Assembly (NCBI RefSeq): GCF_004010195.1 | Contig: NC_057719.1 | Span: forward strand, 19,539,562-19,603,561 | Direction: 5' to 3' | DNA: 64,000 nt | DNA from: Chiloscyllium plagiosum | Lineage: Eukaryota | Shown: positions 2,695 through 63,590 of the stretch, piece by piece | Layout: every line of letters begins with the position of its first letter | Position numbering within the stretch: position 1 is the first letter of the stretch | Position numbers and translations under genes: made by a program | Notes under the pieces: model-generated | Told to the model about the DNA's origin: nothing | Seen by the model: the letters and a program-made list of their open reading frames with translations, nothing else | Databases searched by the model: none

Positions 2695-4042
2695 ATCAGA
2701 GTGGTGCTTTAAAAGCACAGCAGGTCAGGCAGCATCCGAGGAGCAGGAAAATCGATGTTTCGGGCAAACGCCCTTCATCAGGAATGGAGACAGGGAGCCT
2801 CCAGGGTGGAGAGATAAATGGAGGTTGGAGGGGTGGTGGGACTGAGGCCTGGGGAGAAGCTAGCAAAGAGCACAATAGGTGAATGGGGGTGGGGATGGAG
2901 ATGATAGGTCAGACTGGTGAAGTCCACATTGATGCCCTGGGGTTAAAGTGTTCCGAGGCAGAAGATGAGGCGTTCTTCTCAGACTTCAGGTGGTGAGGGA
3001 GTGGCGGTGGAGGCCCAGAACCTGCATGTCCTCAGCAGAGTGGGAGAGGGAGTTGAAATTTTGGGCCACAGGGCGGTGTGGTTGATTGGTGCGGGTATCC
3101 CGGAGATGTTCCCTGAAGCGCTCTGCGAGGAGGCGTCCAGTCTCCATAATGTAGAGGAGTCTGCATCTGGAGCAACGGATACAATAAATGACATTGGTGA
3201 ATGTGCAGGTGAAACTTTGATGGATGTGGAAGGCTCCTTTGGGGCCTTGTATGGAGGTGAGGGAGGAGGTGTGGGCGCAGGGTTTGCGATTCCTGCAGTG
3301 GCAGGGGAGGGTGGGTTGTTGGGGGACATGGATCTGACCAGGTAGTCATGGAGGGAACAGTCTTTGTGGAAAGCGAAAAGGGGTGGGGAGGGAAATATAT
3401 CCCTGGTGGTGGGGTCTGTTTGGAGGTGGCGGAAATGTTAGCGGATGATGCGGTTAATGCGAAGGTTGGTAGGGTGGAAAGTGAGGACCGGGAGGGTTCT
3501 GTCCTTGTTACAGCTGGAGAGGTGGGGTTTGATAGCAGAGGTGCAGGATCTGGATGAGATGTGTTGGAGTGCATCTTCAATTACATAAGAAGGGAAATTG
3601 CGATCTCTAAAGAAGGAGGCCATTTCGTGTGTTCTGTGGTGGAATTGGTCCTCTTCGGAGGAGATACGGTGGAGGCAGAGGAATTGAGAGTATGGGATGG
3701 CATTTTTGCAGGAGTTTAGGATGGGAAGAGGTGTAATCCAGGAACTGTGGGAGTCTGTGGGTTTGTAAAAGATGTCAGTGTCAAGTCGGTTGTCATTAAT
3801 GGAGATGGAGAGGTTCAGGAAGGGGAGGGAGGTGTCAGAGATGGTCCAGGTGAATTTAAAGTCATGGTGGAATGTGTTGGTGAAGTTGATGAACTGCTCA
3901 ACCTCCTCGCGGGAGCACGAGGTGGCGCCGATGCAGTCATCAATGTAACGGAGGAAGAGGTGGGGAGTGGTGCCGGTGTAACTACAGAATATGGACTGTT
4001 CTACATAGCCAACAAAGAGACAGGCATAGCTGGGGCCCATAC
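2695..4042 (-). mobile_element. 5'-truncated Penelope-like element (RT C-terminus, GIY-YIG endonuclease, pLTR)
   Basis: ORF 3438-4040 has MGPSYACLF, RYIDD and FYKPTDSH. A GIY-YIG-like segment (YCIRCSRC.LLYI.ETGR.L.ERFREH) lies at ~3050-3260 and the pLTR at 2695-2790. Possible 6-bp TSD gttagg (2689-2694, 4043-4048). Confidence 0.92.
2754..2781 (-). ncRNA. Minimal type I hammerhead ribozyme core in PLE pLTR (type A)
   Basis: Minus strand reads CUGAUGA-A-GGGC-GUUU-GCCC-GAAA-CA-UC. Core and stem II are intact; stem I is short. Confidence 0.7.
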
Positions 4043-4389
4043 GTTAGGCCACTTCTGGAGTCTTGTGTTCAGTTGGATGCCACACTATAGGAAGAATGTG
4101 ATTGCATTAGAGAAGATGTAGAAGAGATCCACCAGGATGTTGTGTGGGCTAAAGCAATTCACCCATGGGGAGAGACTAGGTGGGCTGAGGTTGTTTTCTT
4201 TAGATCAGAGCAGGCAGAGGGAGGATCAAATTGAAGTGTATAAGATTCAGAGGGACACTGACAGAGTAGATAGGGTGAAACTTTGCCCTGTACTAAAGGG
4301 GTCAAGAATCAGGGCGCATAACCAGGTAGAAACAGCTTCGTTCTGTATGGCAGTTTCACGGGTTGGCGTACGCTGTGCTTTCTTGCAAT

Positions 4390-5040
4390 TATGTTCATAG
4401 ATCTTTGAAAGTTGCCACTCAGGTGGATACAGCTTGTAAGAAGGCCTATGGTGTATTAGCGTTCATTAGCAGAGGGATTGAATTCAAGAGTCGTGAGGTG
4501 ACGTTGCAGCTGTATAGGACCTTGGTAAGGCCACATTTGGAGTACTGTGTGCAGTTCTAGTCGCCTCATTTTAGGAAAGATGTGGAAGCTTTGGAGAGGG
4601 TGCAGAGGAGATTTACCAGGATGTTGCCTGGAATGGAGAATAGGTCATACGAGGATAGGTTGAAAATGCTAGGCCTTTTCTCATTGGAACGGTGAAGGAT
4701 GAGGGGTGACATGATAGAGGTTTATAAGATGATCAGGGGAATAGATAGAGTAGACAGTCAGAGACTTTTTCCCCAGGTACAACAGAATGTTACAAGGGGA
4801 CATAAATTTAAGGTGAAATGTGGAAGGTATAGGGGGGATGTCAGGGGTAGGTTCTTTATCCAGTGAGTGGTGGGAGCATGGAATGCGCTGCCTATGGGAG
4901 TGGCAGAGTCAGAATCATTGGTGACCTTTAAGCGGCAATTGGATAGGTACATGGATAGATGCTTAGGTTAGGACAAATGTTCGGCACAACATCGTGGGCT
5001 GAAGGGCCTGTTCTGTGCTGTATTGTTCTATGTTCTATGT
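4390..5040 (+). mobile_element. CR1 (HER1-like) LINE 3' end
   Basis: LYRTLVRPHLEYCVQF RT tail, 3' UTR gggctgaagggcctgttctgtgctgta and (ttctatg)n tail. Confidence 0.9.
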
Positions 5041-5393
5041 TAGGTTCAGAGGGTACTTGTGGGAAAAAGGAATGCCCCAAAGGGTTGGGGTACATAATTC
5101 ACTCACCAAAGGGGTAGTAGAGGTGTAAACTCTCAAAACATTTCAGAACTATTTTGACAAGCATTTGAAATGCCACAGTATACAAGGCTCTGGGGTCAAA
5201 CATTGGAAAAAGAATTCGAAGAATGTTTGATGGCCATCATGGACACAATGGGCCAAATAGCCTCTTTCAGGATTGTAAAAGTTCTATGATTTGTTAAATA
5301 GATTGTTAAAATGTCATGAATAAGTATAGAACATAATCAAATATGTTCATGGAAATCTGACCTTTATATAAAGACGACTAAAACATCACAGGA

Positions 5394-5797
5394 TATTGGG
5401 GAGACTGGGCGCCTCCTAGCAGAGCGCTTTAGGGAACATCTCCGGGACACCCGCACCAATCAACTACACCGCCCTGTGGCCCAACATTTCAACTCCCCCT
5501 CCCACTCTGCCAAGGACATGGAGATCCTGGGCCTCCTTCACCGCCGCTCCCTCAGCACCAGGCGCCTGGAGGAAGAACGCCTCATCTTCCGCCTCGGAAC
5601 ACTTCAACCCCAGGTCACCAATGTGGACTTCAACAGTTTCCTCATTTCCCCTTCCCCCACCTCACCCTAGTTCCAAAATTCCAGCTCAGCACTGTCCCNN
5701 NNNNNNNNNNNNNNNNNNNNNNNNNNNNNNNNNNNNNNNNNNNNNNNNNNNNNNNNNNNNNNNTGGTTTCCAGCATCTGCAGTCATTGTTTTTACCT
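5394..5797 (+). mobile_element. Penelope-like element 3' fragment (GIY-YIG plus pLTR tail) spanning a gap
   Basis: IGETGRLLAERFREHLRD..VAQHFNSPSHS..EERLIFRLGTLQP; ends ccagcatctgcagtcattgtttttacct. Confidence 0.9.
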
Positions 5798-6280
5798 AGA
5801 AGTTATGCTTCAGTTGAATAAAACCCTAGCAGTGCATTAGCTGGAATACCGTGAGAATGTCTGGACACTAGATGTTAGGAAGAACAGTATATGACGGTAG
5901 AGAAAGCAGCATAGCTTCTTCAGAATGATACCTACGTAAATACCTAAATTAGAGTTAATTTTTGAGGAAAGAATACATAAATTAGAGCAGTGTTACCTGG
6001 AATTTGGAAGGTTTAGAGGTCACCTGTCTTAGAATGAGGGACCCGATCATTTACACCTGAGATATTGAGAAATGTATTCACTCAAACAGTATACGTTGAA
6101 TTTTCTACACCAGAAGGCTGTGGTTATGAATATATTTTAGATTGGCATAAATAGATTTTTGATCTCTCAGGAGATCATGACATATGGATAAAAGGCAGGA
6201 AAATAGATTTAAAGCTGAAAGTCAACCATGATCATATTGAAGCTCAAGATGTTGTATGGTCCATTATGTTCCTACGCTCC

Positions 6281-6561
6281 AGGGTGGCACGGTGGATCAC
6301 AGGTTTGATTCCTCGGGGCAACTATCTGTGTGGAGTTTGAACATTCTCCCTGTGTCTGCGTGAGTTTCCCCGGGTACTCTGATTTCCTCCCACAGTTAGG
6401 TGGATTGACTATGCTAAATTGCCCATAGAGTCTAGAGATGTACAGGCTAGGTGGGTTAAGCCATGGGAAAATGCAGGGTTATGGGAATAGGGTGGGTCTG
6501 GATGGGATGCTGTTTTGGGTGGTGTGGGCTGAATGGCCTGCTTTTACACTGTAGGGATTCT
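6281..6561 (+). mobile_element. HE1-like SINE (internally deleted)
   Basis: gggtggcacggtgg head, tgtggagtttgaacattctccc core, CR1-like tail. Confidence 0.8.
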
Positions 6562-8199
6562 TACGTTATTAACTCTTATATTTGCAAAAATGTAGCAAGT
6601 GCTTGCTCAGTTATTAAGTTTGAATCTTTGACTGATAAGCTTTTATTCCTGAATCATATGTTTTAAAGCCAGCTGTATGGTGAAGCATCACAAATCAGCC
6701 ATAATCACATTGACTGATTCAAAGTCCAAAATAGTGTATTCTTAATCCCATGTTGCTAAGTACTTTAAAGTTTAAATGTTAAATTCTGAGAAGGAAAAGC
6801 TCTGGACTACCTCCCTGATGCTCCAGAGGAAGGTCTGTGAAAACTATGGAATTGGTCAATATCGTACAGGTGTATTCCATGATCAGACAGCAAGAAGTGA
6901 AAATGGAAAAATTGGGGCTGCAGTATTTGAGCGTGTCTCCAAACTCAAGAACTATGCTAGCGTGGTTTGCTAGCATTTTCCAACAGACAGAATAAATAGA
7001 GGAAAGAGGACCTTTTTTTGAAAATATTTTGGAGAAAACTCAGATTTGCAATTTGCTTGCATTCGGTTTTTGTGGAGATAAAATATCGGTTTCACCGACT
7101 AATTTTTTGGTGGGTGGATTTTGTTATTGCGTATTCTGTTTCCCCTCTGGACAATAGCCAGTAAATGCAAAAGAGTTCATCAGTAAGTTACTGCAGTCTG
7201 CTGCTCATCGCTTGAGGAGGACGGGACTTCAGAATACCAGGGAAGTAACCTCTTTCCCCAAGGTCAAACATACTGTGCATCACTGAGCTGCGACCATTAA
7301 TTAAGCAGCCCTGAAAACTAACTCCACAGTCCACAGAACAGCAAAGCCAGCATGGCTTTCAGAACCTGGGCTTTTAATGGACCATTAAACTTCACCTTCG
7401 CCAACAAAACACTTAGCCTCCTTAAACTAAGATGACCTATTACCACAGATTAATTCTCTTCAGGTTATAACTCCGGTAACTTCTGAGATATTTTAACAGG
7501 CTGCACTCAAGGTTTGATTTGATATAATGCTGCAGTAAGTGCATATAAATGGTCCTTGATATTAAGAGGGAATTGTTTTCATCTAAATGGATAAAACCCC
7601 ATTCATTAGGGATAAGGGTAACATTTTCAAATAGATGGTATTTTTGGAGCGTTTTGACAGATTGATTACAGCATATTTGATTTACCTTAATGCAAAATGA
7701 ATACATAAAAATCAGAGTAAATCAAGTACACATTTCACCTAAGTGGAACATTCGATTTAATTCATTTAAAAATGTTGCCATCAAAGCCTTGCATTAGTAA
7801 CTCACTTTGTGTTAAATAAATAAACACATTTCTCTTGCAGCATTACAAAAATCTTATGATATTTGTCTTTCACCAAGATATGAATTGTTTATTCCTGCTT
7901 GTATTTTTTTCCTCTTGGAAAATGAATGGGGAAAAAAAAATCAAATGCCAATCTGGCTATAAATGTTGGAGAGAAAACCTGCTGTGCCCTTGGGAGTAAC
8001 AAGGAGTGAGGCTGAAGATCCATTTGGAATACACCATAAATGAGGGGCTCTCTTAATGTTTTAGAATTATATGTGGATGGGCAAAGTTCAAAATGCAGAA
8101 TGTGAACAAGGTTAAGGAACAGGGGAGATCACGGACACTGAGAAAGGGCTAGGAGGATGCTATAGAAATGTCAACTTTGGCTATCATATCTATAATGAG

Positions 8200-8278
8200 T
8201 GGAAAAATGTGTTGCTGGAAAAGCGCAGCAGGTCAGGCAGCATCCAAGGAGCAGGAGAATCGACGTTTCGGGCATAAT
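8200..8278 (-). mobile_element. Isolated PLE pLTR fragment
   Basis: gttgctggaaaagcgcagcaggtcaggcagcatccaaggagcaggagaatcgacgtttcgggcata; truncated inside the hammerhead stem II. Confidence 0.8.
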
Positions 8279-8912
8279 TTTAGTTGAAAGTTTGAATTTG
8301 TTCAGGTGATGCTGTGCTGGGTGAAATGTCACCATGTGACAGTGCCTCCCATTAAAAGGTGAAGCTTCTGCCTCTATTTGTCAGTCTCTGATGATCAATT
8401 CTGCATCATTGTTTGTTTTATTTATCATTTTATCGACTCCTGGAACACTTTCTTTTGGCCGCTGGAGGGCTGATGCCAATTCTTGTGGACTCCCAGCCAT
8501 TCCAGCAGAGTTGGCAGAACAAGTATGGAATGAATTAACAGAAGCCTTTACGGTCCATGCAATTATCATGGTCATTAAGACCTCCTTTTGATAGGTGCTG
8601 TACTGTTTTCTGATCTGGGATTCAGATGAGTTGTAGTACTCTCAGCAAATCTTGATAGGGAAAGTGCAGGGTTCCATCATCTAATAATCAGTTAGGGGAG
8701 GTAATGTCCTCTTGGTATTATTTCTGGACTATTACTCCAGAGACCCTGGAATGTTTTGGGGACCTGGATTTAAATCCTGCCACGGCAGATGATGAATTTT
8801 GAATTCAATGAAAATTTGGAGCCAAAAGTCTAATGATGATCATGAATCCATTACAAATTGTCAGACAAACTGGTTCACCAATGCTTTGAGGAAAGGAAAC
8901 TGCCATCCGTAT

Positions 8913-9395
8913 CATCTCGGAGACACCCACACCAACCAACCCCACCACCCCCTGGTGAACACTTCAACTCACCTTCCCACTCCACCAAGGACATGCAGGT
9001 CCGGGGCTTCTTCCATTGCCACACCCTAACCACCCGACGCCTGGGGGAAAAACGCCTCTTCTTCCGCCTTGGGACCCTCCAAGCACACGGCATAAATTTG
9101 GATTTCACCAGTTTCCTCATTTCCCCTCCTTCCACCTTATCCCAGTGCCAACCTTCCAACTCGGCACTGCCCTCATGATCTGTCCTACCTGTCCACCTTC
9201 CTCCCAGACTTATCACCATTACCCCCACTTCCAACTAACTATTGTACTCTCAGCTACCTTCCCCCCCTCATTTATGTCTCCACCTCCTTGGCCCACAGGC
9301 CTTATTCCTGATGAAGGGCTCTTTCTCAAAACATTGATTCTCCTACCCCTCGGATGCTGCCTGACCTGCTGTGCTTTTCCTGCATCACACTCTCT
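8913..9395 (+). mobile_element. Penelope-like element 3' fragment
   Basis: EHFNSPSHSTKDMQV..KRLFFRLGTLQ plus pLTR, with a degenerate hammerhead at 9308-9335 (GAAA changed to AAAA). Inserted into a SINE-like repeat starting at ~8700. Confidence 0.88.
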
Positions 9396-13499: not shown

Positions 13500-14402
13500 A
13501 ATGTAGGTGGGCTGATTTGCGGATAATACCAAAATTGGTGGAGTTGCAAAGAGTGAAGAGGGTCATTAAAGGTCGCAGTGAGATATAGATAGATTGCAGA
13601 TTTTGGCAGAGAAATGGCAGATGGAGTTTAACCCAGACAAATGTAAAATGATGCATTTGGAAGATCAAATTCAGATGCGAATTATACAATAAATGGCAGA
13701 ACCCTTAGGAGCATTAACATACAGAGGGATCTGGGCATACAGCTCCACTAATTCCTGAAAGTGGCAACACAGTTGGTTAAGGGGGTCAAGAAGGTATACA
13801 GCACGCTTGCCTTCATTGGCTGAGGCATGAATATAAAAGTTGGCAAGTTATGGTATGGCTATACAAAACTTTAGGCCACATTTGATATATTGCGTGCAGT
13901 CCTGGATGCTACACTACCAGAAGAACATGGATGCTTTGGAGAAAGTGGAGAGAAGGTTTTCAAGATGTTGCCTGGTCTGGAGGGTTTTCGATATGAGGAG
14001 AGGTTGGATAAATTCGGATTATTTTCACTGGAAAGATGGAGGCTGAGGGGCAACCTGTTAGAGGTCTACAAAATGATGAGTGACATAGATAGATGCTTTT
14101 TAGCAGGATGAAAAGGTCAACTACAAAGGGCACAGGTTCAAGGTGAGAGGGGGAAAGTTTCGGGCAGAAGTGCAGGGAAAATCTTTCATCCAGAGGTTGG
14201 TGGGAACTTGGAACACATTGCCAGTGGAGGTGGTGGAAGCAGGCATATTAGCAATGTTTAAGGCATTTCTTGATTGACACATGAATGGAAGGCGAACAGA
14301 GGGATAGAAACTTCATACAGGTAGTAAGTACTGGGTCTAAATGAAGATTAGGAATCAGCACAGCCTTGGTAGGCTGAAGGGTCTATTCCTGTTCTTTGTT
14401 CT
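13500..14402 (+). mobile_element. CR1 LINE 3' fragment
   Basis: FADNTKIGG, AEKWQMEFN.DKC, RPHLIYCVQ.W and a 3' tail. Confidence 0.9.
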
Positions 14403-17546: not shown

Positions 17547-18835
17547 ACCTAAATTGAGTAAGATAACTCATAGGCCAGTATTCAGGAAGACATCTGGAGG
17601 ATTTCATACCTTGGAAAGTCCACCTACATGTGATGTGGAACAATTAATTTGTTTAGCAACATCAAAATCAGAACCAATCAAGATAAACATCTGTTAAATG
17701 ACATCTCATTCTAATTGAGGTTGATACCAGCACAGCCATTACAGAATTCTCTCTGGACTCGAGTCCTTAACTTTGCACAAGATCTCAGCTTGACTGAAAA
17801 CCTATACTGGGGAATCGTTGCAGATTAAGGGTATAACTTTAGTTTCAGTCTCTTATGAGAAGCAGCTGGTTCAGTTACCAGTGATTTGAGTAAAAGGCTC
17901 AGGCCCAAGCTTGATGGGGCAAAATTGGCTGTGAGAGATTCACTTCGATTGGCTCAACATTTTTCAATTAGAAAATGGCCACCTGAGTGAAATACCTGGA
18001 AGTCTTTCAGGAAGGTCTACGGACTAACAGAGGAGCCAAGGTGCATGTTGACAAAGAAGCCATTCCACAATTTTGAAAGGTTTGCCCAGTTGCCTTAGGG
18101 ACAAAGGTAGATCAGGAACCCAAAGGCAGAAAGTGAAGAATCATCAGTCTGCTCCAGTTAGCAGCAAGGGTAGTGCCTGATATACCGAGTTTGAAGCCAA
18201 ATGGATGAGTTCACCTTTGTGGGATTTTAAACAAATAGTAAACCACTTTTTTGCCTCTGGATAAAAGCCAATCCCTTGTGAAGAGGATTTATACACAAAG
18301 CTGGCAAAGGGCCTATTCTTCATGAAGCTTGACATGTATGGACAGCTCCATACCACCCATCATCCAATGGCTTTGCAGAAAGAGTGGTGGAAACTTTGAA
18401 AGCTGGATTGAAGAAACAGCCTACATCCTTGGTAGGTATCCAACTGCCATTATTCTTGTTTGATTATGGGACCACCCAGCATGCAACTACAAAGATAGCT
18501 CCAGTAGAGTTACTCATGCATAGAAGACTTCACATCAGGTTAAGGCTGATCTTCCTCACCTGGGGAGGGATGAAATGGCATCAGAAATTCCAATGTCAGA
18601 CTCAAGTCTCTGCCAAGCCGCCCTTGTCAGATGCAAATGGGGGAATCTGGCACAGTGATAAAATACCCCACATGGCTCTTCAAGAAAAAGGACCGGACTA
18701 TGTCCTCAAACTCAGAGTAAGGGGGAGATGTAATGACTGTAATAAGGTAGCCAGCCGGACATCTTAGATGATGAGTTCCTTAATTGGGGCTGCTACTCTG
18801 GTCCAATCAGGGTAACCTGGCTGTCATACAAAAAA

Positions 18836-19560
18836 GGGAATGCGCTGTGATCCCCTGCAACCGCAGATTGCAGTGGTTCACGGACTCTCAGCCCAACTGC
18901 TTGTTCTGTGGTGCTGTGGAGTCCGTGGACCATGTATATATTGGGTGTGGGCATTTGCACTCCCTTTTTGATTTCCTCAAAAACCTCTTTCTCTGCTTTT
19001 GGTTGCACTTCAGTCCCACGCTCCTGATCTTCGGGCACCCGGTACGAAGAAAGGAGGGCAGGTCTGAAGACCTCCTCGTGGGTCTGCTCCAGGGCCTGGC
19101 CAAACTGGCCATAAATAGGTCCAGGCAGCGGGCTGTGGAAGGGGTCGTTAGGGCCGACTGCCTGCCCTCTTCCACGGTTACGTTAGAGCCCGGGTGTCTA
19201 TGGAAAAGGAGCACGTGGTGTCCACCAACACCCTGGAGTTGTTCAGGGAGAGGTGGGTGCCGCAGGGAGTGGAGTGCATTATTTCCCCCTCCAACTCCAT
19301 TTTGATTTGATCCCTGCCCTCCCCTTCACTGTTTGATCACACAGCATTGCTCTTTCATGTGAAGGGCACTGCTTGTCATTGGCCACTTGGGTGTTTCTTT
19401 TCTTCCTGGTGGTGGAAATTTGAATAAAGATTCGTGCACCTTGTGTCTCTCACTGTGTCTCACACCTACACACACACAACATGGGTGCTGGGGAAAAAAT
19501 AATCACTACCGCAGTTAGGCGTAGTGTGGGGGAAGAAAAAAGAGAAATGCAAAAAAAAAA
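18836..19560 (+). mobile_element. Tx1/L1-clade LINE 3' fragment, copy 1
   Basis: C-terminal zinc-binding motif CLFCGAVESVDHVYIGC, LAKLAINRSRQR, a 3' UTR with AATAAA, a terminal stem-loop and an A-rich tail. Confidence 0.8.
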
Positions 19561-19802
19561 CAAATAAACAGGAGTGTCAGAGGTTCTGAGAGCTTCATTC
19601 TGAGAGCTGCCTCTGAGGGAGCTAGACCAGTATCAAGGACACTCCGTGTGTATGTAAAGGGTGACTTGGTGACAGGATATCAGCCTGTGTGGAGTTATTT
19701 CACTGTTGTCTGTCAGAACCTGTGCCATTGGACATCAGAGGAGGACATTATGTTGTGATAAAGACATTCAGATGAAATTTAAAAAAAGAAAAAGAAGAAG
19801 AA

Positions 19803-20533: not shown

Positions 20534-21039
20534 ATAAACAGGCGTGTCAGGAGGTTCTGTTCACTCAGAGCTGGTTCTGAGGGAGCTGGATCAGTATGGA
20601 GTGAAGGGAAGGACTCTGCTCTCTCAAGGGAAGAGGAGACTGATTTCTTTTTTGTCATTGGTTTCTTTGCAGTAAGGAGGAGTTTTATTCTGAAGTTCTT
20701 TTGATTCTTTATATTGTTTACTGAGATTGTTTGCTTGTTTTCTGGCTTTTTCTTTTTGGCTTATTAAAAAAAAGGGAATGCGCTGATACTCAGGTGTGAT
20801 TTACCCTCTTACCTGCTGTTGTAGCCAACATAATTGCATGGCTTGTCCACTTCAGTTTCTGGTCAATGGTATATCCCGGGATGTTTGTTGTGGGAGGGTG
20901 GGGGGGGGAGGAGTTCATCAATGGAAGTCTCAATGAATGCCAAGGAGTGATTGTTAAATTCTCTCTTGTTGAAGACAGTCAATGTCTAGCATTTGTGTAG
21001 CATGGTGATGCAATATCCGAGTGATATTATTAATCCAGG

Positions 21040-26695: not shown

Positions 26696-27072
26696 GGAGA
26701 AAGTGAGGAGTGCAGATGCTGGAGATCAGAGTCGGGAGTGTGGTGCTGGAAAAGCACAGCAGGTTAGGCAGCATCCGAGGAGCAGGAGAATCGAGATTTC
26801 AAGCATAAGCTCTTCATCCGGAATGAGGGGATGGCCCGAGGGGGCTAAAAGATAAATAGGAGGGTGGGGATGGGGGTAGGAGGGAGGTAGCTGAGAATGC
26901 GACAGGTAGATGAAGGTGCCAGATTGGAGAGGAGGGTGGGGCAGATAGGTGGGAAGGAAGATGGACAGGTCAAGAGGGCATTGCCAAGTTGGAAGGTTGG
27001 ATCTGGGATAAGGTGGGGGAGGGGAAATGAGGAAACTGGTGAAATCCACATTGATCCTGTGTGGTTGGAGGA
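26696..27072 (-). mobile_element. Penelope-like element 3' end (pLTR)
   Basis: Same pLTR as 2695-2790, with tail gtgaggagtgcagatgctggag; hammerhead core mutated to CGGAUGA. Confidence 0.85.
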
Positions 27073-33000: not shown

Positions 33001-33086
33001 AGAGACAGATCTCAGCAAAACCTTGACCTATGCAAAATTAAATATCACACAACACCAGGTTATAGTCCAAAAGGTTTAATTGGAAG

Positions 33087-33121
33087 CACTAGCTTTCGGA
33101 GCGACGCTCCTTCATCAGGTG
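33087..33121 (-). ncRNA. Minimal type I hammerhead ribozyme (type C)
   Basis: CAC-CUGAUGA-A-GGAGC-GUC-GCUCC-GAAA-GC-UA^GUG: 3-bp stem I, 5-bp stem II, palindromic AGCU in place of stem III. Confidence 0.8.
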
Positions 33122-34413
33122 GTAGTGGAGGGCTCAATCATAACACAGAATTTATAGCAAAACTTTACAGTGTGATGTAACTGAAATTATACATTGAAAA
33201 ATTGATTGTCTGTTAAGCCTTTCATCTGTTAGAATACCATGATAGCTTCACTTCTTTCATGTGTAAATCACAAAACCTTTTTTTAAAAAGTTGCATTCTC
33301 AGGTTAGCTGGTAACAATGGTGATAGCTAGACAATATGTTGAAGGTGTTAGCCCCCTGTGTTCTCTGTCTATGCCATGATGTTTNNNNNNNNNNNNNNNN
33401 NNNNNNNNNNNNNNNNNNNNNNNNNNNNNNNNNNNNNNNNNNNNNNNNNNNNNNNNNNNNNNNNNNNNNNNNNNNNNNNNNNNNNNNNNNNNNNNNNNNN
33501 NNNNNNNNNNNNNNNNNNNNNNNNNNNNNNNNNNNNNNNNNNNNNNNNNNNNNNNNNNNNNNNNNNNNNNNNNNNNNNNNNNNNNNNNNNNNNNNNNNNN
33601 NNNNNNNNNNNNNNNNNNNNNNNNNNNNNNNNNNNNNNNNNNNNNNNNNNNNNNNNNNNNNNNNNNNNNNNNNNNNNNNNNNNNNNNNNNNNNNNNNNNN
33701 NNNNNNNNNNNNNNNNNNNNNNNNNNNNNNNNNNNNNNNNNNNNNNNNNNNNNNNNNNNNNNNNNNNNNNNNNNNNNNNNNNNNNNNNNNNNNNNNNNNN
33801 NNNNNNNNNNNNNNNNNNNNNNNNNNNNNNNNNNNNNNNNNNNNNNNNNNNNNNNNNNNNNNNNNNNNNNNNNNNNNNNNNNNNNNNNNNNNNNNNNNNN
33901 NNNNNNNNNNNNACACACACACACATGCACTGTCTCACACTCACAACCCCCAATCCAGACAGACACACATACACAGATAGACAAAGGCCCACAAGCACAC
34001 ATATATTTTGTGGGGTGAATTTGTACTTTCAGGGTTACATTGTACTTTTCTCAAAAACTGCATGCATTCATGTAGAACTTTGAACTCAAAAACTGCATGA
34101 AATCATGTAAAACGCCATTATCTCACTTTTTAGATTACAATCAATCTAAACATCATGGCATAGACAGAGAACACAGGGGGCTAACACCTTCAACATATTG
34201 TCTAGCTATCACCATTGTTACCAGCTAACCTGAGAATGCAACGTTTTAAAAAAAAGTTTTTGTGATTTACACATGAAAGAAGTGAAACTGTCATGGTATT
34301 CTAACAGATGAAAGGCTTAACAGACAATCAATTTTTCAATGTATAATTTCAGTTACATCACACTGTAAATTTTTGCTATAAATTCTGTGTGTTAGGATTG
34401 AGCCCTCCACTAC

Positions 34414-34448
34414 GACCTGATGAAGGAGCAACGCTCTGAAAGCTAGTG
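34414..34448 (+). ncRNA. Minimal type I hammerhead ribozyme (type C, second arm)
   Basis: GAC-CUGAUGA-A-GGAGC-AAC-GCUCU-GAAA-GC-UA^GUG; core intact, one G-U pair in stem II and one stem I mismatch. Confidence 0.72.
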
Positions 34449-34699
34449 TGCTTCCAATTAAACCTGTTGGACTATAACCTGGTTTTGTGTGATTTTTAAC
34501 TTTGTACACCCCAGTCCAATACCGGCATCTCCAAACTTGACCTATGCATTCTGTATTATTCAAACTTGTAATTTACTGCAGGAAAGTACATTGCAAACAG
34601 ATTCCCAAGTAGTTGTATTATTCCTTATTGTCAATTCTTTTAATTTACTTCTTGAATCAGGTTCTGTTTTTGAGTGTTGTAGAGTTTCTTTTTGGTTTT

Positions 34700-37505: not shown

Positions 37506-37531
37506 AATTTTCCACATTGTCAGGTTGATTT

Positions 37532-37559
37532 CTGATGAAGAGCTTATGCTCGAAACGTC
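37532..37559 (+). ncRNA. Minimal hammerhead core (type A) in pLTR fragment 37528-37622
   Basis: CUGAUGA-A-GAGC-UUAU-GCUC-GAAA-CG-UC. Stem II shows the compensatory change GAGC/GCUC versus GGGC/GCCC in other copies. Confidence 0.72.
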
Positions 37560-39265: not shown

Positions 39266-40296
39266 CCTTCTCTTGAATGAAATCTAAATTCTCATTCCCT
39301 TTTGCATGTATCTCTTTTTTTCTAAAAGAACTGATTTTCAGTCTCCCATTTTCTTTTCATCTCTTGTTTCTGAATCACTGAACTACTCACCTCAATGATT
39401 TTTCAAAACCTCAGTTAAGTGCATTTAAACAAATTTTCTAGAAACCCGGTATTGCACAGAACTCAAAGATGAAACTGAATCTATATACTTCTTAACATGC
39501 ATAATATCGAATACAAATAAAAAAAATACATGGTTCTGTCCACAGTAGAGTTTAAGTTTCTAAATAATAATATTTATAATAATAGTAAAAGTATACTTTT
39601 CCTAAAAGTTCATCACAAATCTACAAAGTTAAAAAGGGATTGTGCTTAAAACAAAGGTAGATAAAAGAATAAATAGGTTAGAGTCTTTTGGTGTTCTCAG
39701 ATGTAAGGTTTTATCTGAGACTACAGTTGGTTAGTTAGTTTCTTGGAGTTTACCAGCATAATATAGTTATCTTTTATGTTCAGTTCTCAGTAGTTTCTAT
39801 CCAGCTAATGTTAGATATTTTGTTTCCTGAGGGAAAGAGAGCCTTCCCTGCTTGGGTTCAGTACTGCATTCTTACCTTCCCGGTCTGCCAAAACAGCCCC
39901 TTGAAATAGCAATTTGTTTACAGGGGACTGGGCCATATAATGCACGCGGCATGGACTGCTCACAATTGTGCACTTTGTCACTTTTCGACCGGACTGTAAA
40001 TATCCAACAGTGCAAGCTTCCATTCTTTACTGATTCAACTCAGAGCAATGAAGTGGTGAAGGGAAGCAATGGACATTGAAAAGGGGGCAAGAAGACTGTT
40101 GGATCCATGTGCACCATGGGGCAAGAGTAGGTTTATTCAAGGTTGCATTTTCAGTGGAAGTGTTCCCACAAGCATCTCACAGTAATTTCTAGAGCTCACA
40201 GTCTCGATTAGATTACTCAGGTGAAATGTGCCAGAATCAGGTGTTCCCTGGCTTTGACTGTATTCTTGTGAGTTCCCTGTATACCGTCCAGCCTAG

Positions 40297-40752
40297 ATTA
40301 GAGTGGTGCTGGAAAAGCACAGCAGGTCAGGCAGCATCCGAGGAGCAGGAAAATCGATGCTTCGGGCAAAAGCCCTTCATCAGGAAGGGGCAGAGGAGAT
40401 GTCCTGGGGGTTCCAGTGAGAGATAGATTCACTGAGATTCTTGTAGGGAAAGGAGGATAACTTCTTCAAGGTAGGCATCCTTGCAAGACGATTCGCAATA
40501 AGGTTAAAATCAACTAGGCAAACGTGAGGACTGCAGATGCTGGAAATCAGAGTCTAGATTAGAGTGGTGCTGGAAAAGCACAGCAGGTCAGGCAGCATCC
40601 GAGAAGCAGGAAAATTGACATTCTGAGCAAAAGCCCTTCATCAGAAACGTCGATTTTCCTGCTCCTCGAATGCTGCCTGACCTGCTGTGCTTTTCCAGCA
40701 CCACTCTAATCTAGACTCTGATCTCCAGCATCTGCAGTCCTCACTTTTACCA
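40297..40752. mobile_element. Compact PLE-derived element: pLTR, short ORF-start relic, pLTR, inverted pLTR
   Basis: 10-bp TSD tccagcctag (40287-40296, 40753-40762). Two direct pLTR copies (40297-40385, 40525-40644) and one inverted copy (40644-40752). Confidence 0.85.
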
Positions 40753-45526: not shown

Positions 45527-45743
45527 AGAAAATGAGGACTGCAGATGCTGGAGATCAGAGCTGAAAAATGTGTTGCTGGAAAAGTGCAACAGGTCAGGCA
45601 GCATCCAAGGAGCAGGAGAATCGATGTTTCGGGCATAAGCCCTTCTTCAGGAATAAAGAAGGGCTTATGCCCGAAACGTCAATTCTCCTGCTCCTTGAAT
45701 GTTGCCTGACATGCTGCACTTTTCCAGCAGCACATCTTACTGT
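45527..45743. mobile_element. ORF-less inverted pLTR pair (PLE-derived)
   Basis: TSD agccttgg (45519-45526, 45744-45751); fold-back centred on ~45650-45657. Confidence 0.82.
45623..45650 (-). ncRNA. Minimal hammerhead core (type A), sense to the PLB1-like pre-mRNA
   Basis: CUGAAGA-A-GGGC-UUAU-GCCC-GAAA-CA-UC; fits the CUGANGA...GAAA...UH consensus. Confidence 0.65.
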
Positions 45744-47554
45744 AGCCTTGGTCAGCCCAAACATGGGTATTGTCCAGATCTTGCAACACATGAACATAGG
45801 CTGTGTCAGAATCTGAGGCAATGCAAAAGATGCTTACATCGTGCAATCATCAGCAAACATACCCAGTTCTGATCTGGGACACTACCCTGAGGAACTTCAG
45901 CAGAGATATCCTGGAGCTGAGATGACTGACCTCCAACAACCGCAATCAGTATGATTGGTACGATTCCAGCCATTGGAGAGCTTTTCTTTGATTCTCATTG
46001 ATTCCACTTTGGCTAGGGGTCTTCAATACCACACTCATTCAAAAGAGCCTTGATATGAAGAACAGGCACTCTGACTTCATTGTTGGAATTTCACTCTTTT
46101 GCCCATGTTTGAACCAAGCCTATATTGAAGTCGGGTTGGCCCTGGCAGAACCCAAACTGGGTGTCAGTAACAGATTGTTGCTGAGTAAGTATTGCTTGAC
46201 AGCAATGTTGATGACACTTCCATCACTTAACTGATGATTGGGAGTAAACAGTTTGGTGTGGTAATTAACCACGATGCATTTGTTTTGTTTTTTGTGTATA
46301 GGAGACGCTTGGCGAATTTTCCATATTGCCAGGGAGATGACAATGATACAGCCATTCAAGCATTTGCAATATCCTGTGTATCCAGCTGTTTATTGATATG
46401 ATGTGGAATGAATTGAGTTGGCTGAAGACTGATATCTGGGATGCTGGGGACCTCTGGAGGGGGCTGAGATAGATCATGCACTTGGTACTTCTGCTGAAGA
46501 TTATTACAAAAGCTTCAGCCTTGTGTTTTGCACTGATGTGTTGGGTTCCCCATCATTGAGAACAGGCATATTTGTGGAGCCTTGTCTCCAGTAAGGTTCA
46601 AGAGACCCCATCATTCCTGATTAGATGTGGCAGCATCGTAGACGTTAGGTCTGAACCATCAGTTGTGGAATCAATTATCTCTGTATATCACTTGTTACTT
46701 GTTTGTCACATAATTGTTACAAGTTCAAATGGTTGACATCTTATTTTTATGTAAGCTTGGTGCTACTCCGACACATGCTGGCCTACACACTTCATTAAAC
46801 CAGGATTGATGTCCAGGCTTGATGATAATGGTTGAGTGGGGAATATACTGGGCCATGAGTTTGCAGATTGCTTTGGAGTCCAATATAGCTGGTGGGTCAC
46901 AGCGTCTCATGTAAGCCCAGTCTTGAATTGCCAGATCTGTTAGAGGTATATCCAATTTAGCAGGTGGATCAAGCCACAAAACACAATGTAAAATATTCTC
47001 AATGTGAAGGTGGAATGTTGTGCCTACAACTGCGTGATGGTCACCCTTATGGTCATTGACCTGTTGGAAGCTTAACTTATTTAACACGTTAATAGTGCCA
47101 CACGACACAAGGAAGTTCATCTGCAATATGAATACAGATCTTTGTCTCCACAAGGACCAACTTGATTAGCAGTGGTGCTGCCGAGCCACTTGTGATGGAC
47201 ATTGAAGTTCCCTCACCCAGATTGTAATCTGTGTCCTTACCACCCCAAATATTTCTTCCAAGTGATGTTCAACATGGAGGAGAGCTGAATCATGAAGTGA
47301 TCATGGTATACTGTATATAATGCTCAGCAGGAGATATTTTTGCTAAAGTTTGACCTGTTCACATGAGGCCTAATGGGGTCTGGAGTCAACATGGATGAAA
47401 TAGCATGGAGTCTGCTTTGTCTCATCAAAATTAATATAGAATAAAAAAAAGTACTTGGAGAATATACAGATTTAATTAAACATGCTGTGGAAATTCATTG
47501 CAGGGGATCTAGTAGCCTGATACCTAAGTCTTTGCTCGGTCTGGTCTATTCAGT

Positions 47555-47884: not shown

Positions 47885-48446
47885 ACTGAGCCGGTCTACA
47901 TTTGACTCCTTTCCCAAAACCAACTTGATTGACTCTTAACTGCTCTCTGACTTGGTCGTGCAATTAGTTGATATAGTGGTAGGCAATAAATGTCAGTTTG
48001 CCAACAACGACAGTACCTTAAGTGCGATTAAAATATATCTTGCTTGTAAATGACTAGCACTAATCACGGCGATGACATCTAAACAGAAGATGGATTGAGA
48101 TTTTATCACCCTAACAGAGATCATTTATAGTAACAATAAGAAAATACTTACCAAAGGGTAAAAGAGGACAAGAACAATTACACAGTTCTTTCAAAATGAT
48201 CTCTCATTTAATTATTATAATATCGTGATTTAACTTTCCCATTTTAGTTGGTGAAAAATCTTGTTTCATGAAAAGAAATTCAGGAGAAATACTGTCTGAC
48301 TTTTACAATAATTTAATAATTAGACTGTATATCTGACTTACAATTCCTTATGTTGTCACCATGAAGTGTATTTGATTTGGCAAAAATATGATTTGTGGTG
48401 TTGACTGTATGCTCAGTACAAGACATTAGGGGAGACCTTGAGGCAA

Positions 48447-48622
48447 GATTAGAGTTGGTGCTGGAAAAGCACAGCAGGTCAGGCAGGCTTTCCTGATGAA
48501 GGGCTTTTGCCCAAAGCGTCGATTTTCCTGCCCCTCAGATGCTGCCTGATCTGCTGTGCTTTTCCAGCACCATTCTAATCTTGACTCTGATATCCAGCAT
48601 CTGCAGTCCTCACTTTCACCTC
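48447..48622. mobile_element. ORF-less inverted pLTR pair (PLE-derived)
   Basis: 15-bp TSD gagaccttgaggcaa / gagatcttgaggcaa (48432-48446, 48623-48637). The hammerhead at 48493 has GAAA mutated to AAAG. Confidence 0.85.
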
Positions 48623-51479: not shown

Positions 51480-52120
51480 TGTCACGTGTTCAGTTGCTCA
51501 CAATGTGGTCTCCTCTACTTGGGGGAAATGAAGTGCAGACTGGGTGATTGCTTTGTCTGTCTGCAAAAAATACCCGAGCTTTCACTTGCTTGCCACTTCA
51601 GCACACCACTGTGCTCCCTAGCCAACACCTCTGCCTCAGGCTTGCTGCACCAAAGCTCAGCACAAGCTGGAAGAACAGCACCTCATTTTCCATTCTGCAG
51701 CCTCCTGGACTTAATAATGAGATCAATCATTTTAGGGCTTGAACACCTTTTCCCATGCTTCCCTCCACACCCCACACACCAGACCCTCTCATCACATGGG
51801 CTGCTACCACACACTACCCACTGTCAATCAGTAATAGTCCCCATTAGCAACTGTTCATTCCCCCAGACTGACCTTAAATCACCCCATTGTCTGCCAACTG
51901 TTTTTGAGCTCTATCTCCACCTATCATTTACTGTCCCGGCTCCCCCACCTCAACTTTTGTGTAAAAACCATGGTTTTTTTCTCGCTAATATCAGTTCTGA
52001 AGAAGGGTCACTGGACCTGAAACATTAACTGTGATATCTCGCCACAGATTCTGCCAGACCTACTGAGGTTTTCTAGCAATTTCTGCTTTTCTTTCAGATT
52101 TCCAATATCTGCAGTTTTTT
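51480..52120 (+). mobile_element. Penelope-like element 3' fragment (type B)
   Basis: CSQCGLLYLGEMKCRLGDCF GIY-YIG-like segment; the pLTR ends ttccaatatctgcagttttt. Confidence 0.85.
51992..52031 (+). ncRNA. Minimal type I hammerhead ribozyme (type B)
   Basis: CAGUU-CUGAAGA-A-GGGUC-ACUG-GACCU-GAAA-CA-UU^AACUG: perfect 5-bp stem I and a 5-bp stem II. Confidence 0.8.
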
Positions 52121-57851: not shown

Positions 57852-58024
57852 CTGTTCAGGAAGGATTATATGTTACTTTTATGCATAACAGAACCTTGAC
57901 TCTGACATTGCAATTTCATAGATCTGAATAAATGTAATATTAAGATCAACAGCATAAAAGCGTAGGGAAAAGTAAATTCTTGGCATTTATTAGTGTAGAT
58001 AAATGTCTGCTGGTGTACGTAAAT

Positions 58025-59796: not shown

Positions 59797-60645
59797 TATG
59801 GCCAATGGGCTGAGAAGTGGCAGATGGAGTTTAATGTAGATAAATGTGAGGAGCTGCATTTTGGGTTTGCAAATCTTAATAGGATTTATACATTTAATGG
59901 TAAGGTCCTCAGGAGTGTTGCTGAACAAAGAGACTTTGGAGTGCAGGTTTCATAGCTCTTTGAAAGTGGAGTCACGGGCGATAGGATAGTGAAGAAGGCA
60001 TTTGGTATGCTTTCCTTTATTGGTCAGAGTTTTGAGTACAGGAGTTGGGAGGTCATGTTGCAGCTGTACAGGACATTGGTTAGGCCACTGTTGGAATATT
60101 GCGTGCAATTCTGGTCTCCTTCCTATTGGAAGGATGTTGTGAAACTTAAAAGGGTTCAGAAAAGATTTACAAAGATGTTGCCAGGGTTTGCCGATTTGAG
60201 CTATAAGGAGAAGTTGAATAGGTTGGAGCTGTTTTCCCTGGAGCGTCGGAGGCTGAGGAGTGACCTTATGGAGGTTGATAAAATCATGAGGGGCATGGAT
60301 CGGATAAATAGACAAGTCTTTTTTTCCCTGGGATGGAGGAGTCCATAACTAGAGAGCATAGGTTTAGGGTGAGAGGGGAAAGATATAAAAGCAACCTAAA
60401 GGACAACTTTTTCACGCAGAGGATGGTACGTATATGGAATGAACTTCCAGAGGAAGTGATGGAGGCTAGTACAATTGCAATATTTAAAAGGCATCTGGAT
60501 GGGTATATGAATATGAAGAGTTTGGAGGGATATGGGCTGTGTGCTGGCAGGTGAACCTAGATTGGGTTGGGATATCTCGTCGGCATGGACGAGTTGGACC
60601 GAAGGGTCTGTTTCTGTGTTGTACATCTCTATGACTCTCTGACTC
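59797..60645 (+). mobile_element. CR1 LINE 3' fragment
   Basis: WAEKWQMEFNVDKC, LYRTLVRPLLEYCVQFWSP and a ctctatgactct tail. Confidence 0.92.
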
Positions 60646-62600
60646 CATGCAGACAAATTTTCGACAATAAGAAATCATGCAATCTGGTGGTTATGCAAAG
60701 TGTATTAAACCACAAATCTAAAAAAAATCCTGAAAAGAAAAAGTAACTTTTTCTTATTTCTCTGAGGGAATCAAAAATACATAGGTTACTAATTGCAGAT
60801 ATATGAGTTTAAAAGAAATAAATAATGATATCCATAAAATATCACATAAGAATACCTTGATCCTGAGAGAGTGAACCCTTTATGTTGAGAATCAATTTGA
60901 AATAAAGGTGACTAAATCTAATAAATTTCCAAACTATTCATCTTATTTTGAGATATTCATAATTTATTTTTTTGCCACTGTATGTTTGAAAGGTGGGGTA
61001 GGAGATGTCATTTGATCACGAATAGACTATCTGAATCATTATTCCATATTGTGTGGGAAGAACTATCTATTACAATCAGCTAAACTTCAGTGTTATGTTA
61101 TTTTTAAGTTATTATTGATAAAGGTTTGGGGTTCATTATTTCTTTTATCAGACTGTGGTTTTACTTATCAGAGATAGCATTGTAACTTTGGTGTGACAAT
61201 TATCAAAATAATCCCCAATTTTTTATATAAGTGTTTTCAATTCTTATCAGCAATCTTACATGGTTGTGGAGGGAGTTGACAATTTTATGCTTGCAAGCTA
61301 GCTTTGTCACAGTTATTGAAAAAAAAGAGTATTACAGTATGCAAAGAACCCCTTCCAGCCTATTGTATCCAGGCCAGTCATCAAGCACCTATCTACTCTA
61401 TTCCTACTTTACAGTACTTGATCCGTTGCTGTGTCTGCTACAGAACATTAAAAGATCATCTAAATACTTAATTGTTGTAATGGCTCCGGCTTCTATCACC
61501 CTTTTAGCTAGTGAGTTCTAGATATCAATCACTCTCATGGTGAACAGGTTTCTCCTCAAATCTCCTCTGTTGCTCCTTTTTTTCGACATAGTTTGCTGTA
61601 AGGTTATAGTGTAAAACAACTTTTAAACTATATTCCGATATGTTTTGAATCTTGCTGCTTCACGGATGAACAATCTCAAGAAAGGGTTTTGCTATATGGA
61701 AGCAACCCTAAGGATTTAATGTATATTGATCTGATTGGAAGGCAGACTATTTTTGTTGTTAGATTGTCATAGTAACCTGAAGAACAGGGCAGAAGAGGAA
61801 AATATATTATTAACATATGTTTTTTGTTAAAAGGGCAAGTAAAGTTTTCTGTGACTAATTATGTAATAATGCAAAGAATATGGCTTTAATTAAGGTCATC
61901 ATAAACATCTACTGAAAACTGTTGAACAGTGTGTTTCATTGTGCAATTACTAATGAGTAAGTGTACAATAAATTGAGACTGAATTTGCTATAAATCAACT
62001 GTGGCTGTGTCTGATTATGATCTAAACTGATTTATGGGTAATAATGAGCATAAGGGAAAGTGGAGGGATGCTTTCCTGATGGTTTGGTACTTAATCCTCT
62101 ACACAAGAAAGGGATACAGATGCCTTGGATCCTGGAAATCACATAAAAAATAGATGCATGACCTTTTGATCCACAAGGTGGTTTTCTTAAAGATATGGAT
62201 TTCTATCCTGCTGTAGTCCCTTTGGGGGATAGATGACAATCCCTATGGGTGAGTATAACAAGCAGCGAGGGAATTGTCACTGATTGCACAACAATTCACT
62301 GCTAATCTTAAAGTGCTATGGAAAATTAATACAATGTTTGGTGGCTTATATATTTGTACGCAAAGAACAAAGTACAATGAATTCATTAAAATTTATTTTT
62401 CATGTTTGTGTCAAAGGCAAGGCAAGTATGTGTTGCCCATCTCTAATCACTCTTGCATTGAGTGGATTATTGGTAATTTCTGAGGACATTTAAGAGTCAA
62501 CCCCATTTCTGTAGATCTGGCTCACATGTAGGCTATCAGTCAGCAGGTTTCATTTATTAAAGGACATTAGTGAACCAGATAGGTTTTTATACAATCAATG

Positions 62601-63590
62601 AGGTAAAAACAATATATCCCTGGTGGTGGGGTCTTTTTGGAGGTTGCGGAATCTGAGGGCGGAGGTGCGGGATGTGGACAAGATGCGTTGGAGGGCATCT
62701 TTAATCACTTCCTCTTTAACCAATTCCTCCGCCTCTGCCGTATCTGCTCCCAGGAGGACCGGTTCCACCACAGAACACACCAGATGGCCTCCTTCTTTAG
62801 AGACCACAATTTCCCTTCCCAGGTTAAAGATGCCCTCCAATGCATCTCGTCCACATCCCGCACCTCCGCCCTCAGACCCCACCCCTCCAACCGTAACAAA
62901 GACAGAANNNNNNNNNNNNNNNNNNNNNNNNNNNNNNNNNNNNNNNNNNNNNNNNNNNNNNNNNNNNNNNNNNNNNNNNNNNNNNNNNNNNNNNNNNNNN
63001 NNNNNNNNNNNNNNNNNNNNNNNNNNNNNNNNNNNNNNNNNNNNNNNNNNNNNNNNNNNNNNNNNNNNNNNNNNNNNNNNNNNNNNNNNNNNNNNNNNNN
63101 NNNNNNNNNNNNNNNNNNNNNNNNNNNNNNNNNNNNNNNNNNNNNNNNNNNNNNNNNNNNNNNNNNNNNNNNNNNNNNNNNNNNNNNNNNNNNNNNNNNN
63201 NNNNNNNNNNNNNNNNNNNNNNNNNNNNNNNNNNNNNNNNNNNNNNNNNNNNNNNNNNNNNNNNNNNNNNNNNNNNNNNNNNNNNNNNNNNNNNNNNNNN
63301 NNNNNNNNNNNNNNNNNNNNNNNNNNNNNNNNNNNNNNNNNNNNNNNNNNNNNNNNNNNNNNNNNNNNNNNNNNNNNNNNNNNNNNNNNNNNNNNNNNNN
63401 NNNNNNNNNNNNTCACCCATTGTACTCTATGCTACTTTCTCCCCACCCCCCCCCTCCTCTAGCTTATCTCTCCACGCTTCAGGCTCACTGCCTTTATTCC
63501 TGATGAAGGGCTTTTGCCCGAAACATCGATTTCGCTGCTCCTTGGATGCTGCCTGAACTGCTGTGCTCTTCCAGCACCACCAATCCAGAA
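62601..63590 (+). mobile_element. Penelope-like element with inverted 5' segment, spanning a gap
   Basis: 62612-62703 is PLE ORF sequence on -, and 62705-62907 is on + (QFLRLCRICSQEDRFH); pLTR at 63413-63590. 16-bp TSD ttttatacaa(t/a)caatg at 62585-62600 and 63591-63606. Confidence 0.88.
63500..63527 (+). ncRNA. Minimal hammerhead core (type A)
   Basis: CUGAUGA-A-GGGC-UUUU-GCCC-GAAA-CA-UC. Confidence 0.72.

Follow-up and report, generated by a model that had tools for sequence, protein, structure and literature searches.

The window analysed here is a 64,000-nucleotide stretch of the Chiloscyllium plagiosum genome (assembly GCF_004010195.1, contig NC_057719.1, positions 19,539,562 to 19,603,561 of the forward strand; positions below are counted from its first letter). 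It contains seven copies of a small ribozyme motif that, judged by sequence, are almost certainly minimal type I hammerheads lying in the terminal repeats of three families of Penelope-like elements (PLEs), designated types A, B, and C. The reading preferred for the whole, with a probability of roughly two in three, is that the motifs belong to decaying 3'-end fragments of PLEs whose terminal repeat is laid out like that of a long terminal repeat (LTR) element and whose hammerhead is transcribed first.

An exact-core scan, defined as CUGANGA followed by one extra base, a stem II of at least 3 pairs, and GAAA, gave 8 matches in the window. Seven of these are the cores reported in an initial annotation (C3 at 2781(-), 33118(-), 34417(+), 37532(+), 45650(-), 51997(+), and 63500(+)); the eighth, at 26244(-), has neither U16.1 nor the tail of any family and was rejected as a chance match. 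As a control, 15 order-3 Markov windows gave 7 matches in total (0-2 each). The initial annotation placed its minus-strand cores at the right sites, but its coordinates there correspond roughly to the cleavage base and not to C3, and all seven cores are present as claimed, but "intact" overstates their condition, as 4 of the 7 are without the helix III palindrome. The five decayed copies that it listed are real (9308+, 26820-, 40383-, 40644-, and 48493+): G12 and stem II are lost in 9308+, U4 is changed in 26820-, A15.1 is changed in 40383-, and the GAAA box is changed in 40644- and 48493+. It overlooked several fragments: near 8277(-), 21122(+), 40644(+), and 45655(+) there are truncated type A copies, C3 of a decayed type C copy lies at 37507(-), and the N gap at 5699-5763 probably conceals one more. 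A single unpaired base between A9 and G10.1, which is a mark of PLE minimal hammerheads (PMC4209133), was found in all seven window cores and in 71/71 cores of the genome sample described below. Because all seven cores carry this extra base, a canonical hammerhead descriptor without it recovered 2 of the 7. The Rfam hammerhead families produced 0 matches at gathering score in the window.

Covariation was assessed in 62 type A, 50 type B, 34 type C, and 4 type D copies. Type D is a fourth family found only outside the window (L028:7475, L123, L129, and L148), with U as the extra base, a stem II of 5-7 pairs, and a tail of its own. The covariation of stem II between types that had been proposed was borne out, and helices I and III were found to covary as well. 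Helix II is closed by G10.1-C11.1 with compensatory changes across types A-D, the pair being G-U in CpG-decayed copies. Helix I, which the initial annotation did not describe, has 2-4 contiguous pairs in the window copies; pair 2.1-1.1 is C-G in A (49/62) and B (44/50), U-A in C (27/34), and A-U in D (3/4), pair 2.2-1.2 is U-A in A, A-U in B, U-A in C, and C-G or U-G in D, and a U-U mismatch occupies the third pair in 46 of the 62 type A copies. Helix III differs between families as ACGU versus AGCU; a 4-nt palindromic stem III holds at the family level but is kept in just 3 of the 7 window copies (AGCU at 33118 and 34417, ACGU at 37532); at 2781, 45650, 63500, and 51997 the segment is ACAU, a CpG-decay product that leaves 2 of 4 dimer pairs. 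The identification as minimal type I hammerheads in PLE terminal repeats is thus borne out by the motif itself, by covariation, and by linkage to reverse transcriptase (RT) and GIY-YIG coding sequence.

Coding sequence 5' of the core at 2781(-) comprises the end of an RT (YIDD), a thumb/helix-turn-helix (HTH) region, a CX4CxxC linker, and GIY-YIG, interrupted by stops and frameshifts. A genome search with this RT-GIY-YIG piece returned 61,130 first-look candidates, 150 of which were scored; one locus (L013) holds a 725-aa open frame that matches window 4043-3040 at 79-82%. In Pfam searches, RVT_1 and GIY-YIG of the L013 frame fell just under cut-off and RVT_1 was above cut-off in loci L030 and L032, while Penelope-like coding was missed in the 12 longest window frames and in the type B frame. 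Atlas placed the type A protein in HTH_animal/RVT_1/DUF8422 clusters at 0.97, and HTH_animal was not reported by the Pfam search. Type B loci, which were located by their 3' untranslated region (UTR) DNA, have YIDD RT, linker, and GIY-YIG frames of their own that match type A at 39% over 107 aa, and in both types a CX2-5CxxC linker lies between RT and endonuclease. The link between type C and coding sequence is weaker, consisting of a worn GIY-YIG motif and a same-strand GIY-YIG match in 1 of 30 loci (L083, E=4e-11), and the frame upstream of the type C core at 51997 had no Pfam match. An RT piece lying between two type B repeats in loci L043 and L044 was rejected as the type B open reading frame (ORF), being about 70% to type A DNA; in these loci inverted type B repeats flank some 650 bp of RT DNA that resembles type A, through capture or template switch between families. 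Two window insertions, 33035-34535 and 48446-48622, show an inverted 5' copy, a tail of 30-40 nt, a target-site duplication (TSD), and an insertion end without poly(A). The two repeat copies of the former are 94.7% alike over 357 bp, and its TSD is 16 bp with one mismatch (33019-33034 and 34533-34548).

The 5' ends of core-bearing copies were tabulated for loci L033-L212 and the window, with rows carrying N at the junction dropped. Among 228 copies, 144 begin within 12 nt upstream of C3, 12 begin at 13-39 nt, and 72 extend past the -30 region (short/intermediate/long: 85/3/28 in A, 31/7/39 in B, and 28/2/5 in C). The commonest start base is an A, located 8 nt before C3 in type B and 4 nt before it in types A and C. 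In long copies, TATAAA is found at -38/-40 from C3 in 28 of 39 type B sequences, TTTATC at -35 to -37 in 21 of 28 type A sequences, and a TATA-like box at -33 to -36 in 4 of 5 type C sequences; these boxes sit about 30 nt upstream of the short-copy start. Short copies, or stubs, have TSDs of 10-18 bp and lengths of 92-104 or 127-131 nt; lengths near 93 and 130 nt are what a pair of internal priming sites spaced about 35 nt apart would give, and such a pair has been shown in vitro for a green anole element (PMC11167929). Cleaved RNA was rejected as the template, which would have given copies from the cut site onward, since no pile-up was found there in type A: 1 of 142 tail-anchored copies (a set that also included other families with the common tail) begins at +27 and none at +28 or +29. 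A splice-acceptor origin of the short-copy start was discounted, there being no AG at that position in types A and B.

The junction base was scored where the base before the start A is a purine, by eye, in the first 100 listed matches (contigs C1-C9) of each type. G was found in 91/100 type B, 61/100 type A, and 57/100 type C junctions, against a background of 41%. The type B junction gave 1,902 matches in all, compared with 374 two bases further out and 314 at an internal site; G stood in 42/100 overall, and in 30 of about 50 junction-type rows, at the former control and in 23/43 at the latter. The type B excess over the junction-type control rows has a p of about 1e-5. Where A precedes the start in types A and C, the base before it is often G (18/39 and 18/43, by eye, first 100 listed), and one TSD-bounded stub carries an extra GA. 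An extra G has been described for L1 as a mark of cap copying (PMC4038843). From these sequence patterns it appears probable that the element RNA starts right at the ribozyme and that the short-copy start is the transcription start.

RNA was examined in run X19, a single-cell poly(A) library from a related organism (about 2% read), in which reads come from many family copies and not from this locus; run X20 gave no matching reads, and X1 and X3, contigs of uncertain kind, were left out. The type B repeat attracted 3,810 reads; 412 of them have a terminal A-run following 34474, and 534 have one following 34477. These poly(A) sites lie 12-15 nt past a hexamer, before a GU-rich stretch, with no A-run in the DNA, and about 30 nt past the cut site; read depth does not fall at the predicted cut site 34445. 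The reads probably sit mostly inside host transcripts, and stubs inside genes may end host transcripts because type B repeats supply a poly(A) site that is used in the related organism.

In the LTR retroelement plan, a TATA box lies upstream, the terminal redundancy runs from the cap to the poly(A) site, priming occurs just downstream, and a strong-stop cDNA runs off the cap. The PLE terminal repeat would work in a like manner, with an upstream box, a start at helix I, the hammerhead, a poly(A) site, and priming sites. Transcription would begin at the outer edge of helix I, 4-8 nt upstream of C3. The RT would prime within the RNA 93 or 130 nt downstream, at a two-site "tail" such as that of PMC11167929, copy the uncut hammerhead, and run off the capped end, often adding a C, seen as G at the junction. 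Over half of these events would go no further than the capped end, leaving promoter-less stubs or fold-back head-to-head palindromes, while the remaining events would go on into the 3' UTR and ORF, either with the cDNA jumping to the 3' copy of the redundant segment or with a template that is tandem or circular. The abundance of the motif and its head-to-head pairs would arise because most copying events stop at the cap or fold back. A full transcript is predicted to have a hammerhead at both ends, its own other end serving as the dimer partner, probably with the element protein, and double cleavage would strip cap and tail to leave a unit-length RNA able to circularise; a circularisable unit RNA after cleavage was proposed in PMC4209133. 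Such end-to-end cleavage between the two ends of one transcript is regarded as somewhat doubtful. The fullest version is advanced tentatively: the pseudo-LTR may be a U3-R-U5 unit with the hammerhead as R, the 100,000-plus stubs fossil strong-stop cDNAs of capped, uncut RNA, and the long or tandem copies products of an R-to-R jump or of doubly cleaved, circularised RNA. A putative TATA box with an initiator has been described in a rotifer repeat (PMC3846280).

Several observations weigh against this account. The junction G in types A and C exceeds the 41% background and does not exceed the junction-type controls (30/50 and 23/43), and in the local sample G was found in 21/85 A, 13/31 B, and 6/28 C junctions. 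Many of the type B G's could come from an inverted arm; when those were dropped by eye, 23/28 remained G. TSDs were called in 11 of 40 G-selected loci (29/40 uncalled), with the G outside the TSD in 5 and inside it in 6, and microhomology with a C-terminated cDNA may produce a G inside the TSD, which is nevertheless no proof of such a cDNA. The type A box is a non-canonical TATA, subfamilies A1 and A2 are without a poly(A) signal, and type A reads in X19 fall on either strand, none of those listed having a poly(A) end. Neither read starts nor read ends pile up in X19, a poly(A) single-cell library being a poor test, and no full-length element with two direct repeats was recovered from 20 long-frame loci, 18 of which have N gaps. 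Private non-CpG mutations in the core are somewhat below the flank prediction (7/1049 versus 106/6812, p=0.025), and rare core alleles number 19 where 26.3 were expected (p=0.095); weak selection on individual copies may be involved. Finally, the layout is not universal: in Penelope of Drosophila virilis the promoter is internal and TATA-less, and an intron separates the start from the hammerhead (PMC2377424, PMC4209133).

The main alternative, an unlikely one, accepts the same identity for the motifs and has short copies end by RT stalling or cDNA fold-back on the hairpin fronting the hammerhead, with the boxes and the G incidental. Inverted arms do lie directly upstream in about 39/85 short A, 20/31 B, and 11/28 C copies, self-priming palindromes have been described at inverted junctions (PMC3846280), and both the 6/11 G's within TSDs and the lack of a G excess over controls in A and C fit this view. 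The end point, however, lies outside the stable stem II, and its distance from the TATAAA conserved in B and C is fixed; stubs that have clean TSDs and no inverted arm stop at this base too, and the 91% G in type B is tied to one position.

The fate of copies after insertion was assessed in 106 long copies located by their flanks only. Subfamily-shared variation was present in 0/30 non-CpG core columns as against 26/188 others (p=0.03), so the core is more conserved than its flanks and active lineages therefore kept it; a first comparison (2.2% versus 5.9%) confounds subfamily differences with decay and was replaced by this test. Of type B and A1 copies, 16.7% and 16.1%, respectively, had a change at G12 in the core CpG, against 17.4% and 17.3% at other CpGs, and complete cores remain in 62 of the 106. 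The helix III and helix I duplexes that would hold a dimer were computed at -2.5 kcal/mol at best, and in folding none of the monomers adopts the full hammerhead. Most copies are solo or head-to-head with no same-strand partner, and the palindromes of 34417 and 37532, the window's intact neighbours on one strand, are incompatible. Copies decay after insertion, and almost all genomic copies are likely inert. Stubs have neither box nor partner and are likely inert, and the copies are best viewed, with considerable confidence, as inert by-products.

Exact matches to three tight patterns were counted in 3.56 Gb and totalled 105,680 (88,972 A, 15,860 B, and 848 C), with 0 for the reversed patterns. 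A density sample of 120 evenly spaced 10-kb stretches (1,153,916 non-N bases, larger contigs only) contained 81 cores, of which 71 retain U-H, 47 of those 71 also keep the helix III palindrome (positions 15.1-16.1), and 41 also have two helix I pairs; the reversed-sequence control gave 3 cores. Extrapolation, which assumes 3.4 Gb of non-N sequence, gave about 210,000 cores (163,000-264,000), 102,000-184,000 with U-H and the palindrome, and about 120,000 fully formed (87,000-164,000). The figure of about one core per 10 kb in the initial annotation is right in that density is high genome-wide, but the sample value is 0.62 per 10 kb (71 in 1.154 Mb) compared with 1.1 in the window. The very large ribozyme complement deduced from it is overstated as regards working ribozymes: the motifs are abundant, yet only 41/81 sampled cores keep U-H, the palindrome, and two helix I pairs. 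Massive genomic occurrence of PLE minimal hammerheads had already been published, with counts of about 4,000 in coelacanth and about 9,000 in Xenopus (PMC4209133). The abundance here is likely for the most part a by-product of where the RT primes.

That the motifs form a large set of host-used ribozymes cutting read-through transcripts, as the initial annotation implied, is improbable. The extrapolated number of fully formed motifs, the family sequence in poly(A) RNA of the related organism, and the slightly fewer private core mutations could be taken to favour such a role, but the decay of G12 at the rate of other CpGs, the fraction of complete cores, the weak helix III/I duplexes, and the steady X19 read depth across the cut site all speak against it, as do published results in which single minimal hammerheads were uncleaved in vitro (PMC4209133) and the anole hammerhead required its protein (PMC11167929). 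Least probable is that the stubs form a non-autonomous family in its own right (retrozyme or SINE-like), amplifying from its own short RNA, as their uniform lengths and TSDs and the PLE-repeat-derived tandem retrozymes of vertebrates including one cartilaginous fish (bioRxiv 10.64898/2026.07.22.740005) might suggest, for the stubs run colinearly with the ends of those copies in their own subfamilies that bear an RT, have no -30 box, and are accompanied by no tandem hammerhead units in the window, where a tandem-repeat search (TRF) gave 3 short unrelated arrays.

Coordinates, strands, and particulars of the hammerhead-bearing features of the window
Feature	Position	Strand	Particulars
Type A minimal hammerhead	2754..2781	-	C3 2781; predicted cut after 2754; helix III ACAU
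5'-truncated type A element	2688..4043	-	RT end/thumb/HTH 3378-4043, linker, GIY-YIG 3040-3315, pyrimidine-rich 3' UTR, hammerhead, tail
Second type A end fragment, facing away	5347..5800	+	GIY-YIG piece 5347-5505; N gap 5699-5763 at expected hammerhead; extended tail 5764-5800
Decayed type A core	9308..9335	+	Within end fragment 8913-9393
Decayed type A core	26793..26820	-	Within end fragment 26695-27071
Type B insertion	33035..34535	+	Left inverted repeat copy; right direct copy with about 35-nt tail; N gap 33385-33912
Type B minimal hammerhead	33090..33118	-	AGCU intact; helix I 3 pairs
TATAAA, mirror copy	33151-33156	-	30 nt 5' of putative start 33126
TATAAA, putative promoter box	34377..34382	+	32 nt 5' of putative start 34409
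Type B minimal hammerhead	34417..34445	+	AGCU intact; predicted cut after 34445
Poly(A) signal and addition sites	34457..34477	+	ATTAAA/AATAAA 34457-34462; addition sites 34474-34477, then GU-rich stretch; from related-organism reads
Type A core	37532..37559	+	GAGC/GCUC stem; ACGU intact; about 95-bp stub; adjoins decayed type C copy 37507(-)
Compound type A insertion	40290..40751	-	Two decayed same-strand cores (C3 40644, 40383) with post-tail element sequence between; also a truncated inverted partner from 40644 on plus
Head-to-head type A palindrome	45529..45738	-	Minus arm core C3 45650, cut after 45623, ACAU; plus arm without C3-G5
Type A stub	48446..48622	+	Decayed core 48493; short inverted tail; 14-bp TSD (1 mismatch) at 48432 and 48623
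Type C minimal hammerhead	51997..52026	+	GGGUC/GACCU; ACAU; U17; helix I 4 pairs; worn GIY-YIG-like stretch upstream from about 51450
Type A core ending truncated element	63500..63527	+	ACAU; thumb/HTH piece 62703-62906; N gap 62908-63412

A TSD common to the 5347..5800 fragment and the 2688-4043 copy was not found. Past the type A tail (window 40383-40644, minus strand; L101:3492), the sequence runs into an ATG about 175 nt from the putative start, and the tail end resembles a branch point, pyrimidine tract, and AG, which may denote a 5' intron. A separate old PLE thumb/HTH fragment at 23699-23875(-) is 41% to type A, with no adjoining hammerhead found. Among features of other kinds, window 18333-20597 may hold the remains of an LTR element: a weak match to the integrase-core Pfam family rve_3 (E=2e-4, below its cut-off) precedes two tandem copies of about 800 bp (18831-19633 and 19798-20597) that are 90.6% alike. 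A short interspersed element (SINE)-sized family of about 330 bp has about 8 copies (6316, 11861, 21513, 47547, 50793, 52969, 53614, and 58647), and ARAGORN called no tRNA gene in it. Fragments of long interspersed elements (LINEs) lie at 36933-37343 (RVT_1 above cut-off), 45308-45526, and 45989-46327, and further ones at 4394-5041, 13605-14306, 25257-25666, 28500-29310, 38509-39258, 42277-42920, and 59800-60651; these fragments include a multi-copy family that looks CR1-like.

The motif, its carriers, and its mass occurrence are already in print (PMC4209133); added here are the boxes near -30, the G test against controls, and the poly(A) site. The available text of PMC4209133 does not locate the motif relative to start or poly(A) sites, and in the open-access literature, with the supplements of PMC4209133 and PMC11167929 outside its scope, no report was found of these hammerheads in sharks or of cap-type PLE junctions. 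Regeneration of the terminal repeat and the role of the hammerhead have been called unclear (PMC2377424, PMC8557442); if true, the U3-R-U5 reading would provide a mechanism for the former and a role for the latter. The very high copy number lets start, priming, and poly(A) sites be read from junctions, and the account makes a concrete, testable prediction, namely a cap at the helix I edge and cleavage only when both transcript ends meet.

Compared with the minimal hammerheads of metazoan PLEs (PMC4209133), those described here agree in the core boxes, in the base left unpaired between 9 and 10.1, in the G10.1-C11.1 pair, in the palindromic 15.2-16.2 segment, and in a short helix I, and likewise lie in terminal repeats, mostly solo, with opposite-strand pairs and several families per genome. 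They differ in a shorter stem II (4-6 pairs) and in scale, with 105,680 exact matches and about 210,000 cores against about 4,000-9,000, the search rules being different. The Poseidon element PAc of the green anole (PMC11167929) similarly has a hammerhead upstream of two internal RT start sites, a tail of 30-40 nt, uncut RNA as the main template, and no RNA ends at the cut site. In contrast to PAc, the elements here have a linker that suggests the Neptune/Nematis type, a type A ORF that seems to begin about 175 nt past the motif and not in stem II, and a 5' copying limit that was read from thousands of genomic junctions. Endonuclease-bearing (EN+) PLEs of the Neptune/Nematis type (PMC8557442, PMC3846280) share the RT, the CX2-5CxxC linker, and a GIY-YIG at the C terminus that has cysteines between GIY and YIG, as well as heavy 5' truncation, an inverted 5' copy, an optional tail, and TSDs; the type B insertion at 33035-34535 has the layout given in PMC8557442, with an inverted repeat, a direct repeat with tail, and a TSD. 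The piling of 5' ends at the start, the cap-type G, and the poly(A) site past the hammerhead go beyond the accounts of EN+ elements in the available text of these two sources. Non-LTR retrozymes of vertebrates (bioRxiv 10.64898/2026.07.22.740005) also carry type I hammerheads from PLE terminal repeats, but these form tandem arrays with a motif per unit, whereas the copies here are dispersed singles and inverted pairs. The U3-R-U5 plan of LTR elements is a working likeness and not a membership: TATA box, redundancy, downstream priming, and short run-off cDNA would correspond. Unlike LTR elements, these PLEs would prime on nicked target DNA with a telomerase-related RT bearing a GIY-YIG nuclease, often insert the short cDNA unchanged, and have the hammerhead as the redundant segment.

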